The position numbers were made by a program, and so were the translations under genes. A DNA stretch of 64,000 bases from Smithella sp. (GTDB lineage Bacteria; Desulfobacterota; Syntrophia; Syntrophales; Smithellaceae), in assembly GCA_035382085.1 (NCBI GenBank), contig DAOSZO010000001.1, positions 4,488 through 68,487 of the forward strand. The letters run 5' to 3'. Below the pieces are notes generated by a model, which worked only from the letters and a program-made list of their open reading frames with translations, did not search any database and was not told where the DNA came from. Positions 20,674-27,023 of the stretch are shown here, piece by piece. The first letter of the stretch is position 1. Each line of letters begins with the position of its first letter.

Positions 20674-21627
20674 ATGGCAGAAGATTATTACGATGTTTTG
20701 GGTGTCGATAAAAAAGCCTCGGCGGATGATATAAAAAAAGCATACAGAAAACTCGCCCTTAAATGGCATCCAGACAGAAATCCCAATAACAAGGCGGCCG
20801 AAGAAAAATTCAAGAAAATAAGCGAAGCCTACGCCGTTTTGAGTGACACAGAAAAACGCAAGCAGTATGACCAGTTTGGTTCCGCCGACCAGTTCCGTCA
20901 GCAATTCTCCCAGGAGGATATATTCCGTGGCTTTGACATTGATGAAATTTTACGGAGTTTCGGTTTTGGCACAGCAAGAGGAGGTAGAACAACTTTTCGA
21001 ACCAGCAGAAGGGGTAGCGGCCTGAATGATGATTACGATGATCCTTTTGTGGGACTTTTCGGGAGCATGGGATCGGAAGGCCGCCGTTACTCAAATATGC
21101 CTCAAAAAGGACAAGATGCCGAGTATAATCTATCCATAACGCTGGAGGAATCGGTTTTCGGAACAGAAAAAAAAATATCCTTTCAACTGGAAAATCGCAT
21201 TGAAGACATAAACGTTAAAATTCCGGCCGGCATTAGTACAGGAAAAAAATTAAGATTGCCAGGAAAAGGCCTCTCTGGCGTCAATGGAGGTCCTAACGGA
21301 GATTTATATCTAAATATTAATGTTTTGCCTCATCCCATTTATGCCCGAGATGGAAATGATTTGTATCTTGAAAGAACAATAAGATTTTCTCAAGCGGCAT
21401 TGGGCACATCGATTGATGTCCCCATGCTCGATGGTACGACCAAAAGAATAAAAATTCCTCCCGGAACTCAGAATAATACCAAAATAAGAATGAAAGGCTT
21501 TGGCGTTCCCGGGATGAAAGGTGCTTCGAGGGGAGATATGTATGTAAAAATTAATGTCGAAGTTCCTAAGAAGTTAAATGATCGCCAAGTAAAGCTCATT
21601 CAACAACTGGCTGCTGACGGCATTTAA
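20674..21627 (+). CDS. cbpA: DnaJ-class co-chaperone lacking the zinc finger (CbpA-like)
   Basis: J-domain DYYDVLGV...[11 protein letters not shown]. No CxxCxGxG repeats. The C-terminal DnaJ_C beta domains are present. Confidence 0.8.
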
Positions 21628-21762
21628 AAATTTATTAACAATTTACAAATGATCATTCGAGCCTCATTTAAAATATTTAACCCTTGTAAAAAATGTCCTA
21701 TAAGATATGTTATGTAAACATAATAAAACTTTTTTAAATTATAAATTTAAGCAACCTTGCCA

Positions 21763-22701
21763 TTATATTGTCTTCCTCCGCCCAACTGATATACAAATCA
21801 TATTGTATAATTTGTTTCTTAAATCGTTGTATGTATTCCATGAAATATAATTGTAATTTTTTCTTTCAAAATGAACATTTTCCAGAATGTTTTTTCTTAC
21901 GCACCAAATGACGGGAAGATTTCTGCCCATGGCGTACCCTGCTTCAAAATAAACGGTTTGTTTTTGATCGCTTACTTCGGCAACAACAAAAAGAGAGTTT
22001 TTTATTTCATTAATAATTTTTGAATTGATTCTATCCATCTGCCGTTTGTTTTCATAACGGCAAGCTTTATAGCCGGCATCATGAATGGCCGGCTTGATGG
22101 CTTTTTCCCAAATCATATTCATTTCTTTAGAAAAGGACATGGCGACATAGGCCTGGCTCAATTCTATGGCCCGCTGCTCATATTGATCAAGATATTCCCA
22201 TCCATTAGAGCTTATCATAACGGAAACAGTTCCGTCGATGCGCGCGGGAAAATCACCTTTTTCGCCGGTTAAAACCAGGAGACCCCGTTCGACAAGGAAT
22301 CTTATATAAAACAGAACTTCCCTCGGTTCTTTTGCCCAAGCCAGGGGAAAGTCAAATTCCGGGGAAATATTGACGCTGTCTCCAGGATATCTAGATTTAC
22401 GGGAAATATTTCGCAAAAACAGATATTGTTTATCGGAAGGATTGTACTCCGGTATGGAATTCTCAACATCTTTTAGGCATTTGATGTTTATTTCAGGAAC
22501 ATCTACATTTAATTCCGAAAGATTTCTGATCCACGACGAAAGCAACTTGGTTATGTTTTTGTTGTCCGCCATTCGAATGGCGGTCCGCGTGATCGTAAAG
22601 TGACCGCATCGGATGCAATGAAAAGTCATTTTCTCTTTAGAGGCCGAATGGGAAATGAAAGATTGGTTGTGAAGATGGCAAATCGGGCAGTCTTTTTTCA
22701 T
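21763..22701 (-). CDS. Orphan protein: N-terminal zinc ribbon, central winged-helix-like region, C-terminal nucleoside 2-deoxyribosyltransferase/TIR-like domain
   Basis: CPICH...CIRCGH zinc ribbon. FLVERGLLVL..ISSNGWEYL resembles a winged helix. The C-terminal AYVAMSFS...LFVVAEVSDQKQTVYFEAGYAMGRNLPVIW matches the NDT-like fold pattern. ATG at 22701 follows AAAGGG. The gene is visibly AT-rich. Confidence 0.55.
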   Translation of the reverse strand: MKKDCPICHLHNQSFISHSASKEKMTFHCIRCGHFTITRTAIRMADNKNITKLLSSWIRNLSELNVDVPEINIKCLKDVENSIPEYNPSDKQYLFLRNISRKSRYPGDSVNISPEFDFPLAWAKEPREVLFYIRFLVERGLLVLTGEKGDFPARIDGTVSVMISSNGWEYLDQYEQRAIELSQAYVAMSFSKEMNMIWEKAIKPAIHDAGYKACRYENKRQMDRINSKIINEIKNSLFVVAEVSDQKQTVYFEAGYAMGRNLPVIWCVRKNILENVHFERKNYNYISWNTYNDLRNKLYNMICISVGRRKTI

Positions 22702-22752
22702 AAAATACCCTTTCTGGATGAATATCCGCATGTTAGTTAAAAAAACGATTTA

Positions 22753-23490
22753 TTAAATCAACTCCACCTCCCCTATTACACCCATTTCATTGCCGATAAC
22801 AATGATAATGCCCCGAACGCCGTTTAATTTTATGCCGAACTCCAGAGCGGCTTTAATATCGTCTTTTGTTTTCACTTTATTGCCGATGGCGGACGCCGCG
22901 GCATCGGCTAGAGTGGCTGATTTCGAAACCACGCAAACCGCGTCAGCTTTTCCGAAACTCACTGAAGGACCGACCGTCGCCGATGATGTACATATTCCCA
23001 GCGGAGTATCTTCAGATTTAACGACAAAATTTACATTGAAACTCAAGGGAGAATCTCCGGCGTAAACCGAAACAATAAGATTCCTTTCCGACTGAAGAAA
23101 AATGTCTCCTCCGTTTTCAATAATCAAATTTTTTGTATGGTCCATTAAATCATATCCTACAAATTCGGCGACAGCCCCGGCCACGCCCGCCATCGGGCCC
23201 ACGCCGCAGATTTTTGACTTCGTCAGCATATCCCGAACCAAGGGAGGAGCTAATTTATCTTCGGGCAACGGCAGAAGAGAAGAATAGAATGCTGGATGGT
23301 TTTCTATGTATGTTTCCAGAGCATGACGATGACAGGCTAAGGATTTCAGAGCCTCTTCCTTTAGATTAAGATCAGAGCTGATCAACAAATCGCTTTCTCC
23401 TAATTTTACATTATATGAAATGAGATTATCTTTGTTGACTAAATTTCGATAGGTTCTCTCCTGATACTTCATCTGCAACCCTTTTTTCAC
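22753..23490 (-). CDS. UPF0280 family protein (ApbE-like fold)
   Basis: YQERTYRNLV... followed by GVGPMAGVAGAVAEFVG; family recalled from memory. Confidence 0.55.
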   Translation of the reverse strand: MKKGLQMKYQERTYRNLVNKDNLISYNVKLGESDLLISSDLNLKEEALKSLACHRHALETYIENHPAFYSSLLPLPEDKLAPPLVRDMLTKSKICGVGPMAGVAGAVAEFVGYDLMDHTKNLIIENGGDIFLQSERNLIVSVYAGDSPLSFNVNFVVKSEDTPLGICTSSATVGPSVSFGKADAVCVVSKSATLADAAASAIGNKVKTKDDIKAALEFGIKLNGVRGIIIVIGNEMGVIGEVELI

Positions 23491-23543: not shown

Positions 23544-26500
23544 TTATGAGTAAATGGTGGACCCTTCCCCCAAAATCGTATCAGCCTCTCTTCTGAGCGC
23601 ATCCGTAATATCAAGTCGGCAAGCATCGCCCAAGTACACGGTTGTTTCACTTTTTTGATTCAGAAGATGCATATAAGCGTTGAATTTACCGGTATGTTTT
23701 TTGATCAAAGAAATAAAATCATCCATGGTTTCCAAAGAAATTTTTTCGATATCAACTATAAAATGTATTTCTTTGAAAGGATTTTCCAATGCTTGAGTTA
23801 TTGGAATAACCTCCTGAGCGATTACGGTAATTTTTTGGTTTTCCTCATTTCCGCTTATGTCGATTTTTCCCTTGATCACCACAGGCTCTTCCCCATGTAA
23901 AAGGGCATAATATTTTCTGTAGAGATCAGCAAAAAAAATCGTATTGACCGATCCTTTTAAATCTTCAATCGTTACATAACACATGATATCATTTTTTTTT
24001 GTCTTTTTTTCGCTTCTAGAACTTATTATTCCAGCGATTGTCGCGTCATCCTTATCGTTTTTATTATGGATGGTCGCCGAATTGCAGTCGGTGATGTATT
24101 TTAATCTGTCAGAAAAACTCAGTAGCGGATGGCCGGTGATGTAAAATCCCAAAGCTTCTCTTTCCAGAGACAGCTTGCTTTTCTGATCCCACTCCGGAAC
24201 ATCATCGGGTATTTCATAGGAAAGAACGCCATTGTCTTGAGCCGAGCGATTTGAGTTCAACTGCTCAAAAAAACTGGATTGGTTGCTAAGCTTTTCTTTT
24301 TTGCTTCTCTGAGCTTGCTCCATAGCCTCTTCACAATGCATCATCAGCTGACTGCGTTTATAACCAAGAGAATCAAAAGCGCCGCATTTAATCAAGCTTT
24401 CGACAACTTTTTTATTGACCTTGCGCAAATCGACTCGGGTTAAAAAATCCATAAAAGAAGAAAACCTGCCTTCTTCTCTCACCGAAATGATTGATTCGAT
24501 TGCAGCCAGGCCAACATTTTTTATAGCGGCCATTCCGAAGCGGATGTTTTCGCCTGAAATTGTGAAATCTTTTTGGGATTCGTTGATGTCCGGAGGCAAA
24601 ATGCTGATTCCCATTTCTTTGCACGCCGTCATGTATTTGATAATTTTATCAGGGTTGTCCTTTTCACTGGTGAGCAGGGCAGTCATAAATTCGGCGGGAT
24701 AATGCGCTTTTAGATAGGCGGTTTGATAAGCAATGATGGCATAGGCTGTACTGTGTGATTTGTTGAAACCGTAGGAGGCAAATTCCTTGATTTGTTCCCA
24801 TATTTTTCTTGCAATATTTTCATTGATTCTGTTTCGTTTAGCCCCTTCAATAAATTTAGGCATTTCCTTTTCCATCGCCTCAGTCAATTTTTTGCCCATG
24901 ACTTTCCGCAAGGTATCTGCTTCGGCCATGGAATATCCCCCAATGACACTGGCAATGCGCATGACCTGCTCCTGATATAATATGATGCCGTAAGTTTCTT
25001 TCAGAATCTCTTCCAGTTGCGGCAATTCATAAGATATTTTGGTTGTTCCCTGCTTGCGCTTTATGAATTCTGAAATCATTCTCATGGGACCGGGACGATA
25101 AAGCGCGATCAAGGCGATGATGTCCTCGATGTTATCCGGCTTGAAATTTATAGCCAAGTCCGTCATACCTGCGCTTTCCATTTGGAAAACCCCGTCTGTT
25201 TGACCGCGCCCCAACAGCTCATATGTTTTTTTGTCGTCAAGAGGAAGATTATCAATATCAATTTCTAACCCTTTGAAGTGTTTAATAAATTTAAGAGCTT
25301 TTTTAATAACCGTAAGGGTTTTCAGTCCGAGAAAATCGAACTTGGTCAAGCCGATCTTTTCAATATCATCTTTTGAAAATTGTGTTACCACGTCATCTTT
25401 GGGAATACACAGCGGAACCCTTTCCACCAATGGCACATCGGAAATCACCACCCCGGCCGCATGCGTTGAAGCGTGACGGTTGATGCCCTCGAGAATTCTT
25501 GAAAGTGCCAGCAATTTGGCGACTGTGGGGTTATTTTTTTCCTCGTCGGCAAGACGCGGTTCATTTTTGATGGCCTCAGTGAGGGTGATTTTAGGGTCGT
25601 TGGGAATCAGTTTTGCGATTTTATCCGCATCAGCGTAAGGCATATTCAGGGCTCTGCCCACATCTCTGACCACTGCCTTGGCTTTCATTTTCCCGAAAGT
25701 GATGATCTGGGCGACTTTGTCCTGGCCGTATCTCTCCATGACGTATCGGATGATATCGTCCCGGCCCTCTTCGCAAAAATCAATGTCGATATCCGGCATG
25801 CTGATTCGGCTGGGATTCAGAAAACGTTCGAAAAACAAATTGTAACGAATGGGGTCGATATTTGTGATTCTCAAAGCGTAGGCCACGAGGCTGCCCGGAG
25901 CGGAACCCCGCCCGGGACCAACGGGGACATCGTTATGCTTGGCGTGTTTCACAAAATCCGAAACAATTAAAAAGTAGCCCGCAAACCCCATGGATTTGAT
26001 GATTTCTAGCTCATCGTGGAGCCTTTTTTTATATTTTGCGAGGACTTCAAGTTCGTTTTCTTTTTGATCCCTTAATATTATGGGGAAAAGCTTTTCCAAT
26101 CCTTCTTTGGCTTTTCTTTCCAGATAATCATTAAGTGTTTCTTCAGGATTCTTTACTTGGAAATTCGGAAGGATGAATTGTCCCAACTCCAATGAAAAAT
26201 TGCATTTTTCAGCGATGCTGACGGTATTAGCTATGGCTTCGGGGGTGAGTGAGAATAATTGTCGCATTTCATCCGGTGATCGAAAATAAAACTGATCTGT
26301 GCCCAACGACATCCTGTCTTTGTCGGCCATGGTTTTCCCCGTTTGAATGCAAAGCAGAACGTCATGCGCTTCGGCGTGATCACGATCCAGGTAATGACAA
26401 TCGTTGGTGGCAATTAACGGAATTGAAAGTTCCTTGCTTAATTCTATCAGGCCGGCATTGACAATTTTTTGTTCAGGCAGTCCATTTTCCATCAATTCGA

Positions 26501-27023
26501 GATAAAAATTGCCCTCTCCAAATATTTCCAGGTAATTCAGTGCGGCTTTCCTGGCCATTTCCATGTTTCCCTGAAGAATGCAAGAAGCAACTTCGCCCTG
26601 CAGACAGGCGCTGGAAGCGATGAGGCCCTCATGAAATTCTCTGAGCAATTCCTTGTCAACGCGCGGTCTGTAATAAAATCCCTTCAGATAAGCCGTGGAA
26701 GTCAGCTTCATCAGATTTTTATAGCCCTGTGAATTTTTGACCAGGACGATCAAATGCCGGGCGCTCTCTCCAGCGATTCTATCCGTGAGTTTATTTTGCG
26801 CCACATACAGCTCACATCCAATGATTGGTTTTATTCCGTACTTATAAGCTTGCTGATAAAAATCAACGGCCCCGAACATATTTCCGTGATCCGTAATGGC
26901 CAAGGCGGGCATTTTGTAGTCGCGCGCTTTTTTAAAGAGATCCTCCAGACGGATCATGCCGTCCAGAAGACTGTATTGGGTATGGAGATGAAGGTGAACG
27001 AAATCAGAATGCTTCATGGTCAA
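23544..27023 (-). CDS. dnaE: DNA polymerase III, alpha subunit
   Basis: 1159 aa. PHP domain FVHLHLHTQYSLLDG, polymerase core GPGRGSAPGSLVAYAL and MPDIDIDF, plus an OB-fold tail. Confidence 0.95.
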   Translation of the reverse strand: MTMKHSDFVHLHLHTQYSLLDGMIRLEDLFKKARDYKMPALAITDHGNMFGAVDFYQQAYKYGIKPIIGCELYVAQNKLTDRIAGESARHLIVLVKNSQGYKNLMKLTSTAYLKGFYYRPRVDKELLREFHEGLIASSACLQGEVASCILQGNMEMARKAALNYLEIFGEGNFYLELMENGLPEQKIVNAGLIELSKELSIPLIATNDCHYLDRDHAEAHDVLLCIQTGKTMADKDRMSLGTDQFYFRSPDEMRQLFSLTPEAIANTVSIAEKCNFSLELGQFILPNFQVKNPEETLNDYLERKAKEGLEKLFPIILRDQKENELEVLAKYKKRLHDELEIIKSMGFAGYFLIVSDFVKHAKHNDVPVGPGRGSAPGSLVAYALRITNIDPIRYNLFFERFLNPSRISMPDIDIDFCEEGRDDIIRYVMERYGQDKVAQIITFGKMKAKAVVRDVGRALNMPYADADKIAKLIPNDPKITLTEAIKNEPRLADEEKNNPTVAKLLALSRILEGINRHASTHAAGVVISDVPLVERVPLCIPKDDVVTQFSKDDIEKIGLTKFDFLGLKTLTVIKKALKFIKHFKGLEIDIDNLPLDDKKTYELLGRGQTDGVFQMESAGMTDLAINFKPDNIEDIIALIALYRPGPMRMISEFIKRKQGTTKISYELPQLEEILKETYGIILYQEQVMRIASVIGGYSMAEADTLRKVMGKKLTEAMEKEMPKFIEGAKRNRINENIARKIWEQIKEFASYGFNKSHSTAYAIIAYQTAYLKAHYPAEFMTALLTSEKDNPDKIIKYMTACKEMGISILPPDINESQKDFTISGENIRFGMAAIKNVGLAAIESIISVREEGRFSSFMDFLTRVDLRKVNKKVVESLIKCGAFDSLGYKRSQLMMHCEEAMEQAQRSKKEKLSNQSSFFEQLNSNRSAQDNGVLSYEIPDDVPEWDQKSKLSLEREALGFYITGHPLLSFSDRLKYITDCNSATIHNKNDKDDATIAGIISSRSEKKTKKNDIMCYVTIEDLKGSVNTIFFADLYRKYYALLHGEEPVVIKGKIDISGNEENQKITVIAQEVIPITQALENPFKEIHFIVDIEKISLETMDDFISLIKKHTGKFNAYMHLLNQKSETTVYLGDACRLDITDALRREADTILGEGSTIYS

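Follow-up and report, generated by a model that had tools for sequence, protein, structure and literature searches.

What is a single gene that couples sensor-like to effector-like domains doing among the housekeeping genes of a Smithella sp. genome? The gene in question, here called X, lies on the minus strand of a 64,000-nucleotide stretch of contig DAOSZO010000001.1 (the window). The original prediction, made from the sequence alone, proposed that its product combines a zinc ribbon, a winged-helix-like middle and a C-terminus of the nucleoside 2-deoxyribosyltransferase (NDT) or TIR type, and that it is a candidate defence protein. Our analysis leans the same way, with modest confidence: X would be a stand-alone, single-polypeptide sensor–effector protein of abortive infection, cleaving nicotinamide adenine dinucleotide (NAD+) or a nucleotide once triggered. 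The grounds are its architecture, the conservation of a glutamate in the effector domain, a patchy spread that includes plasmids and prophages, the lack of a partner gene, purifying selection and a variable sensor half. The gene and its parts are as follows.

21763..22701, minus strand: coding sequence of X, 312 amino acids, coordinates including the stop codon (open reading frame list, homologue P0001, alignment of 60 homologues, AlphaFold2 model)
22588..22701, minus strand: zinc ribbon, residues 1-38, three-stranded, with invariant C5, C8, C29 and C32
22156..22587, minus strand: helical linker and MarR/PadR-like winged helix, residues 39-182 (model and Foldseek)
21787..22155, minus strand: effector domain of the NDT/DNPH1/TIR superfamily, residues 183-305, flavodoxin-like and of N-glycosidase type (Foldseek, Pfam, PADLOC)
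21943..21945, minus strand: GAA codon of Glu253 in VYFEAGYA, nearly invariant, aligned with the Rcl Glu, lost in homologue P0041

In an AlphaFold2 model of full-length X, built on 60 homologues (mean predicted local distance difference test score, pLDDT, 85), the segment AYVAMSFS...VYFEAGYAMGRNLPVIW forms the strand–helix alternation of a flavodoxin-like domain. The best Foldseek match is DNPH1/Rcl (9i6e_B; E 9e-4, target template modelling score 0.64-0.71), with others to the cytidine monophosphate (CMP) N-glycosidase BcmB (4jen) and to NDTs (9emw, 8qc0); TIR folds, namely SARM1 (7cm7, 6zfx, 8gni) and the SPARTA TIR-APAZ protein (8i88), rank below DNPH1 at E 3e-3 to 8e-3, and over this whole set of matches the template modelling score on the target is 0.6-0.7. 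A viral structure library returned NDTs together with a 'CMP/hydroxymethyl CMP hydrolase'. Profile comparisons point in the same direction: Pfam Nuc_deoxyrib_tr (PF05014) matches X at 17.3 bits (E 0.0054), under its 28.8-bit gathering score, and matches 58 of the 60 members, always sub-threshold (best E 2.2e-5), whereas the TIR models (PF13676/PF01582) give weak matches in three of the 60 (best E 0.0054).

The motif ADVT-x4-GVYFEAGYA of X corresponds to AEVTQPSLGVGYELGRA of the Rcl/DNPH1-NDT enzymes. When the family profile ('fvvADVTeqkrGVYFEAGyAlG') was aligned to Rcl ('VVVAEVTQPSLGVGYELGRAVA') by hidden Markov model (HMM), Glu253 fell on the Glu of GYELG, within 'GVGYELGRA' of Rcl. This Glu is the covalent nucleophile of Rcl/DNPH1 (Rcl E93; DNPH1 E104), and Glu253 is predicted to be the catalytic nucleophile of X. 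The modelled fold and the G-x-x-x-E-x-G-x-A glutamate motif after the central strand would place X in the NDT/DNPH1 (DrHyd) superfamily.

A defence-oriented library gives a complementary result. All 60 members match one PADLOC model only, PDLC00733 (labelled 'Effector' and 'TIR'; best E 7.8e-15, X itself E 8e-10), the match being restricted to model positions ~260-363 of 388 and lying over the effector domain; the retron-effector, PsyrT and Thoeris models found no match among the 60. By PADLOC naming, PDLC00733 would be an effector belonging to a system that signals through cyclic nucleotides (CBASS or Pycsar, for example). Its effector domain is homologous to that of X, and its N-terminal sensor part differs. 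No nucleotide cyclase adjoins X in the window, and none occurs among the recurrent Pfam families of 148 neighbouring genes at other loci. Judged by sequence, the X family is not a member of CBASS or Pycsar; its C-terminus appears to be the same kind of killing module. The proposed NDT/TIR-like C-terminus with a conserved acidic residue is thus upheld by Nuc_deoxyrib_tr (58/60), PADLOC (60/60), the Foldseek folds and the alignment of Glu253 to GYELG, and every motif quoted in its favour is present in the protein.

The copy in the window departs from the family at 8 of 84 conserved columns, the changes including D217E, H221Q, T244S and a replacement of HFDTRQYNH by HFERKNYNY:

21859-21885 (residues 273-281) and 22041-22052 (residues 217-221), minus strand: altered effector residues (alignment)

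D217E, H221Q and T244S are common to homologues P0002-P0004 (76-81% identity), and Glu253 is kept. Pseudogene decay was considered and rejected: because the sub-clade shares the changes and the Glu is retained, the window copy is better seen as a maintained lineage variant, in which activity or substrate may be altered. A further syntenic homologue, P0041 (L008:8001-8939 and L122:7819-8757), reads FYFGAGFA for VYFEAGYA, and 16 of 86 conserved columns are altered in it; probably it has been inactivated while keeping its place in the same slot.

The N-terminal half is the probable sensor. Modelled separately, residues 1-182 gave pLDDT 90 and a predicted template modelling score (pTM) of 0.83. 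The ribbon has predicted beta strands at residues 13-18, 24-29 and 33-38, and the CPIC...CIRC pattern behind the earlier zinc-ribbon call stands: all four Cys are invariant in the 60 homologues, and weak Pfam/NCBIfam matches are to Zn_ribbon_DnaG (CHC2), Lar_restr_allev, Com and ECs_2282_CxxC (a small prophage protein family). Residues 39-182, a putative sensor or oligomerisation module, contain the conserved motifs SAWIR, LPDYxPSxKQ, DYPLAWA and GW. The stretch FLVERGLLVL...SSNGWEYL, previously likened to a winged helix, is predicted to form a helix and a beta-hairpin wing, and the N-terminal model matched winged-helix proteins only (best E 0.03, probability 0.97): the MarR-family proteins HpaR, HosA and HcaR, then BusR, SarA, PadR and winged-helix domains of the origin recognition complex (ORC). 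Because the matches are all winged-helix and all weak, the model supports the fold, with no close relative. Mean pairwise identity is 46% in the N-terminal half versus 67% in the effector half, and the most variable stretch of the protein is the wing loop (residues 141-165).

One further match in this half was seen. For profile positions 97-127 (X residues ~95-125) the best PDB sequence match is the TPR sensor PH0952 (6mfv_A; E 0.039), over a stretch that ends in an identical 'DYPLAWA'; it is probably a chance resemblance.

The mechanism proposed for X takes Swarozyc as its template. Swarozyc consists of a DUF4062 TIR-like NADase with an AUX domain of helix-turn-helix (HTH)/winged type; in the model of its authors it is activated by assembling on a phage portal and depletes NAD+ (bioRxiv 10.64898/2026.05.01.722283). 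Like X, it is a single polypeptide that pairs an N-glycosidase domain carrying a catalytic Glu (predicted in X) with an auxiliary domain of winged-helix type, and it has a patchy horizontal spread; the two differ in domain order, Swarozyc having its effector at the N-terminus and X at the C-terminus, and in that X adds a four-Cys zinc ribbon. DUF4062 (PF13271) has no match in X at E<=1 and is absent from the listed families of the 60 members. In X, the variable N-terminal module (ribbon, helical linker and winged helix) would keep the protein inactive until an invader cue – a phage protein or nucleic acid – binds. Binding would lead to oligomerisation, or to repositioning, of the C-terminal NDT/DNPH1/TIR-like domains, in which Glu253, acting as nucleophile or general base, would serve to break the N-glycosidic bond in an abundant nucleotide. 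NAD+ would be the most likely substrate, a (deoxy)nucleoside monophosphate the alternative; the resulting depletion would stop the phage from replicating while sacrificing the infected cell. The defence role we infer from distribution, context and domain logic, and with it the trigger, the oligomerisation, the substrate and the abortive outcome.

Retron Ec86 (Retron-Eco1) offers a second precedent, its NDT-like effector having the catalytic residue E106 (10.1101/2023.08.16.553469). The likeness to X lies in an NDT-like domain with a catalytic Glu (again predicted in X), which in Ec86 is the anti-phage effector of an oligomeric assembly. The Ec86 effector needs an adjacent reverse transcriptase and multicopy single-stranded DNA (msDNA), whereas X lacks neighbours of this kind and gave no match to the PADLOC retron models: no reverse transcriptase or helicase partner is conserved beside it in the window or across 90 loci. 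More generally, the Aravind laboratory predicts that DrHyd/NDT-superfamily members of conflict systems are NADase effectors (PMC9503650). The best structural matches of the effector domain – DNPH1/Rcl, NDT (PF05014, clan Nribosyltransf) and BcmB/MilB – are stand-alone metabolic enzymes of ~130-160 amino acids, whereas X adds a 180-residue ribbon/winged-helix module and is accessory and mobile; where DNPH1 has its GSIRGG phosphate loop, X has MSFS. The architecture is best classed as a new variant of the single-protein immune proteins with TIR/NDT effectors.

The alternative that survives best, itself unlikely, retains the N-glycosidase and changes its target. X would act on modified bases, either hydrolysing hypermodified (deoxy)nucleoside monophosphates that serve as phage precursors, or excising bases from invading DNA. 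DNPH1 acts on hydroxymethyl-deoxyuridine monophosphate (hmdUMP), and BcmB/MilB on CMP/hydroxymethyl-CMP; in the structure search DNPH1/Rcl and BcmB outrank TIR, the viral library yields the hydroxymethyl-CMP hydrolase along with NDTs, Pfam similarity is to NDT (58/60) rather than TIR (3/60), the Rcl motif aligns residue for residue, and the N-terminal domains are of nucleic-acid-binding type. Yet the sole significant match in the defence library is to a TIR-annotated model, a Foldseek E of about 1e-3 does not discriminate between substrates, the GSIRGG loop is replaced, and docking to DNA by the ribbon and winged helix of the model is putative.

About as improbable is the view that X is a ligand-responsive transcription factor, in which the NDT/TIR-like domain would sense a nucleotide (or catalyse slowly) and the N-terminal half would regulate nearby or prophage genes. 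The N-terminal model resembles DNA-binding winged-helix regulators only, some of them solved with DNA (HpaR, BusR, PecS), and the homologue P0072 is annotated by the Joint Genome Institute (JGI) as a PadR-family regulator. Inactive TIR-DrHyd-SLOG members act as nucleotide sensors (PMC9503650); in Bacillus prophages X adjoins an ArpU regulator module, and some relatives add an HTH of Xre/HigA type. Against this, the effector half is the most conserved part of the protein and nearly every member has the nucleophile Glu, an indication of catalysis and not of binding alone. Neither a conserved adjacent target gene nor an operon is present, neighbourhoods being unrelated across lineages, and the matches to winged helices are weak, none better than E 0.03, such folds also binding protein, as in the Swarozyc AUX domain.

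As to distribution, the description of X as an orphan fails: hundreds of full-length homologues exist. A first search gave 495 matches, the best 120 of them almost all full length. At least 550 species representatives from more than 10 phyla have a homologue (Thermodesulfobacteriota, Nitrospirota, Proteobacteria including Burkholderiales, Planctomycetota, Bacteroidota/Ignavibacteria, Chloroflexota, Acidobacteriota and Binatota among them), and several genomes have two copies. Full-length homologues are found on plasmids of Bacillus mycoides, Bradyrhizobium, Hydrogenimonas and Hymenobacter, with a shorter match on a Leptospira plasmid. Relatives are carried by 39 IMG/VR viral or prophage contigs, and PHROG 16139, whose function is unannotated, matches the family at E 2e-37. 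A tblastn search of 50,697 sequenced phage genome records gave no match; X is therefore rare in bona fide virions. In temperate phages of the B. cereus group the gene sits between an ArpU/recombinase module and the terminase, and sequenced relatives of these phages match the flanks without X, a moron-like arrangement. In temperate phages, morons more commonly encode defence or exclusion functions. A position at prophage ends was also considered: 12 of 39 loci fall in the terminal 10%, against about 8 expected, too weak a signal with loci that are non-independent.

The effector-domain profile alone reaches 14,489 clusters of 50% identity with a cut-off of E<=1e-3, or 1,608 with E<=1e-30. Among the 150 best representatives, 107 have the complete zinc-ribbon and winged-helix module; the others have alternative Cys-rich N-termini (e.g. 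'CPIWG...') or an added Xre/HigA-type HTH. Judged from these sequences, the sensor region is modular across the family. Individual variants include P0158 and P0199 (554-566 amino acids), which have an extra N-terminal region of ~250 residues with an Xre-like HTH ahead of the ribbon/winged-helix/NDT-like core, and P0200 (412 amino acids), in which a HigA-like HTH precedes a middle region that is divergent. Public annotation calls homologues either 'nucleoside 2-deoxyribosyltransferase' or 'hypothetical', the family has no Pfam entry of its own, and the searchable literature contains no description of the zinc-ribbon/winged-helix/NDT-like architecture.

Across the 90 loci, no neighbour cluster occurs beside X in more than 13, so that a universal partner gene is lacking. 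There are three lineage-specific syntenies: the dnaE/AbpE slot of the window, AAA-ATPase – X – DUF559 in Syntrophobacterales and Desulfobaccales, and argC...X-argJ in Planctomycetota. One candidate for a conserved downstream partner, a gene of 264-290 amino acids with a signal-peptide-like N-terminus (in L004, L006 and L007), was rejected: it is lineage-specific, the window lacks it, and the neighbour in L010 is not related to it. The 148 immediate neighbours, from 37 non-redundant loci, include as recurrent families type I restriction-modification (R-M), PIN, NTP_transf_2, AAA_13, SMC_N and rve proteins as well as housekeeping genes. At single loci X is found near Dev_Cell_Death/DUF4357, a giant TPR protein, AAA_14/DUF4143 and an rve transposase; beside an IS6 transposase; beside an ATPase and HNH; beside ThiF and helicases; beside Abi_C and a HigA-type antitoxin; and beside an MNT nucleotidyltransferase and an IS1595 transposase. 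Neighbours of R-M, toxin-antitoxin (TA), Abi_C, SEFIR or integrase type are confined to a minority of loci. A PADLOC scan of the 148 neighbours was set aside as a measure of enrichment, its output being dominated by redundant type I R-M models on the same 2-3 proteins.

Two of these contexts deserve separate description. In the second synteny (L025:7618-9369, L216:5204-6958 and six more loci) an AAA ATPase of ~583 amino acids lies immediately upstream of X, with a 42-bp gap in L216, and a DUF559 (Vsr-like) endonuclease lies downstream in five loci, L216 not among them; the arrangement may represent a lineage-specific operon or a variant made up of several genes. On the phage-like Leptospira interrogans plasmid p4 (NZ_CP043897.1; L013:5309-10121), the X homologue stands between a SEFIR protein and a 778-residue S-adenosylmethionine (SAM)-dependent methyltransferase, all on one strand, and the three may form a small defence cluster.

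We return to the locus in the window, where the neighbours named in the original prediction (a UPF0280 gene and dnaE upstream, a convergent cbpA) are confirmed by the open reading frame list and Pfam:

23544..27023, minus strand: dnaE, upstream of AbpE and on the same strand as X
22753..23472, minus strand: AbpE_bact/UPF0280-type gene, bounding the islet upstream (Pfam PF27030 on the L001 ortholog)
22702..22752, minus strand: gap of 51 nt from the AbpE stop to the X start, with an alternative in-frame ATG at 22731 and an AAAGGG site
21628..21762, no strand assigned: AT-rich spacer of 135 nt, GC 0.215, between the convergent stops of X and DnaJ/CbpA
20674..21627, plus strand: DnaJ + DnaJ_C (CbpA-type) gene (Pfam E 2e-49 and 6e-30), the downstream boundary of the islet, convergent to X

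In relatives with X at 55-64% identity, the order is always dnaE – AbpE – X – (0-4 variable genes) – DnaJ – POR. This retention in one slot looked core-like, and presence or absence was therefore determined with AbpE as bait in a metagenome collection, which gave 80 loci, 56 of them with enough downstream sequence. On the same backbone X is present in 4 of the 56 and absent from 52, so the prediction that the gene is accessory, not universally syntenic beside dnaE, holds. In Smithella/Syntrophaceae-like genomes the junction between AbpE and DnaJ (21628-22752 in the window; loci L095-L174) ranges from 123 bp (empty) to 7.2 kb, many junctions without X measuring 123-300 bp, and its cargo amounts to 58 protein families among 120 open reading frames. 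Because X is present in so few relatives, and the junction is otherwise empty or holds other cargo, X belongs to the accessory genes of a small flexible islet and not to a dedicated defence island. The defence-like or mobile cargo includes SbcCD as well as the following genes.

L017:12512-15445: Metallophos-nSTAND NTPase5 protein
L095:7834-8967: DndB-like protein
L149:9484-11307: MORC-like HATPase_c_3 protein
L133:7725-9092: HTH-LAGLIDADG protein
L159:5202-6722: DDE transposase

Where it is kept, X is under purifying selection: the ratio of nonsynonymous to synonymous substitution rates (dN/dS) in closer carrier pairs is 0.08-0.15, like that of AbpE and about twice that of DnaE and DnaJ. Identity between the window and syntenic relatives is 55-64% for X, 68-78% for AbpE, 72-81% for DnaE, 78-86% for DnaJ and 88-92% for IMPDH. 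From these sequences, X in the carrier relatives looks vertically inherited and not recently acquired. A local contrast was noted in the closest pair, two Smithella metagenome-assembled genomes (L021 and L022): X has a synonymous divergence (dS) of 0.56 and 86% amino acid identity, versus dS 0.25-0.32 and 94-97% identity for the flanking AbpE and DnaE, which may reflect replacement of the X allele in that slot, or else a rate of substitution that is raised locally.

These data bear on a third alternative, more doubtful than the two above: that X is an ordinary accessory salvage enzyme (an NDT or nucleotide hydrolase), its N-terminal domains serving regulation or oligomerisation, with no role in conflict. 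Public pipelines do label homologues as NDTs, the gene lies between housekeeping genes both here and in Planctomycetota, and a dN/dS of about 0.1 is like that of neighbouring AbpE. Yet all 60 members fall below the Pfam NDT gathering threshold (best E 2e-5), only 4 of 56 close relatives have X, single genomes hold paralogues, and X is found on prophages and plasmids with R-M, TA and Abi genes as neighbours; modular sensor-like N-termini and the match to a defence-effector HMM likewise speak against salvage. Least probable of all is that X is a counter-defence or superinfection-exclusion factor of mobile elements (destroying, for example, isomers of cyclic ADP-ribose, cADPR, or cyclic oligonucleotides) with its chromosomal copies being prophage remnants, since in spite of the 39 viral or prophage contigs, PHROG 16139, the moron-like position in B. 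cereus-group phages and the proposal that viral TIR-DrHyd-SLOG members act on ADP-ribose (ADPr) derivatives of host immunity (PMC9503650), sequenced phage genomes gave no match, most copies are chromosomal without nearby phage genes, and the idea overlaps with abortive infection, given what temperate-phage morons more often are.

The limits and expression of the gene were also considered. An intact minus-strand open reading frame spans 21763-22731 and would encode 322 amino acids if counted from its first ATG. The likely start is the ATG at 22701 (312 amino acids, MKKDCPIC...), because three observations agree: a Shine-Dalgarno-like AAAGGG lies upstream of it, P0001 (99% identical to X) is called at exactly 312 amino acids on three metagenomic contigs (e.g. 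L001), and in the alignment all homologue N-termini start a few residues ahead of the first CxxC. A promoter scan of the gap between AbpE and X detected no separate promoter, sites there being not above shuffled controls; X is therefore probably co-transcribed with dnaE and AbpE. In the spacer at 21628-21762 no terminator-like site and no promoter excess were found, and its folding energy does not improve on that of shuffles (z -0.2); a promoter or terminator of its own, or a structured RNA, was accordingly dropped as a candidate, nothing rising above the shuffled controls.

Composition had been the other ground for suspecting an island, and of this claim only part stands. X has the lowest GC (0.391) among 50 long open reading frames of the window (mean 0.460, standard deviation 0.036, z about -1.9), and the spacer is lower still; GC at third codon positions (GC3), however, is 0.421 in X, inside the local range (0.377 in the adjacent DnaJ gene, 0.402 in the POR gamma gene). 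The AT bias is real yet mild, and is weak evidence for anything. Nor does the window locus have a tRNA, a flanking direct or inverted repeat, or an integrase to mark an insertion, and with GC3 within the local range composition lends no support to recent horizontal acquisition.

Several findings weigh against a role for X in abortive infection. The compositional signal at X is weak. Association with defence genes is partial, and many copies lie between housekeeping genes (dnaE/AbpE/DnaJ, or argC/argJ in Planctomycetota). The islet also holds ordinary cargo – a thioesterase, an ICMT/PEMT methyltransferase, an APP1 phosphatase, a TRL lipoprotein and a cation efflux protein – and in the host lineage X has kept to a single slot even among deeply diverged copies (55-64% identity), making it less mobile than typical defence genes. 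The strongly conserved motifs DYPLAWA and LPDYxPSxKQ in the N-terminal half are more in keeping with a conserved ligand than with a rapid arms race. The sub-clade of the window has replaced several near-invariant effector residues, so that activity may differ, and the searchable literature holds no experimental data on any member of the family.

With these points set against it, the reading of X as a sensor–effector abortive-infection protein makes the family a credible and very widespread uncharacterised defence candidate with a familiar logic. The window locus adds little beyond the family: its gene is an ordinary intact member with lineage-specific changes near the active site. The family is not listed as a system in PADLOC v2, and confirmation of a defence role would give the bacterial immune repertoire a further, very common single-gene module (at least 550 species; about 1,600 clusters at 50% identity). 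X would then also be a compact model, at ~310 amino acids, for the switching of an NDT/TIR-superfamily glycosidase by a ribbon and winged helix. If instead modified bases were the target, the chemistry of the NDT fold would extend to a direct and selective anti-phage nucleotide or DNA glycosidase that works without depletion of NAD+. In sequence X lies between the NDT and TIR clans, making it useful for studying the evolution of substrate choice (NAD+ versus deoxynucleoside monophosphates), and the label 'nucleoside 2-deoxyribosyltransferase' on ~310-residue proteins of this type is probably misleading.

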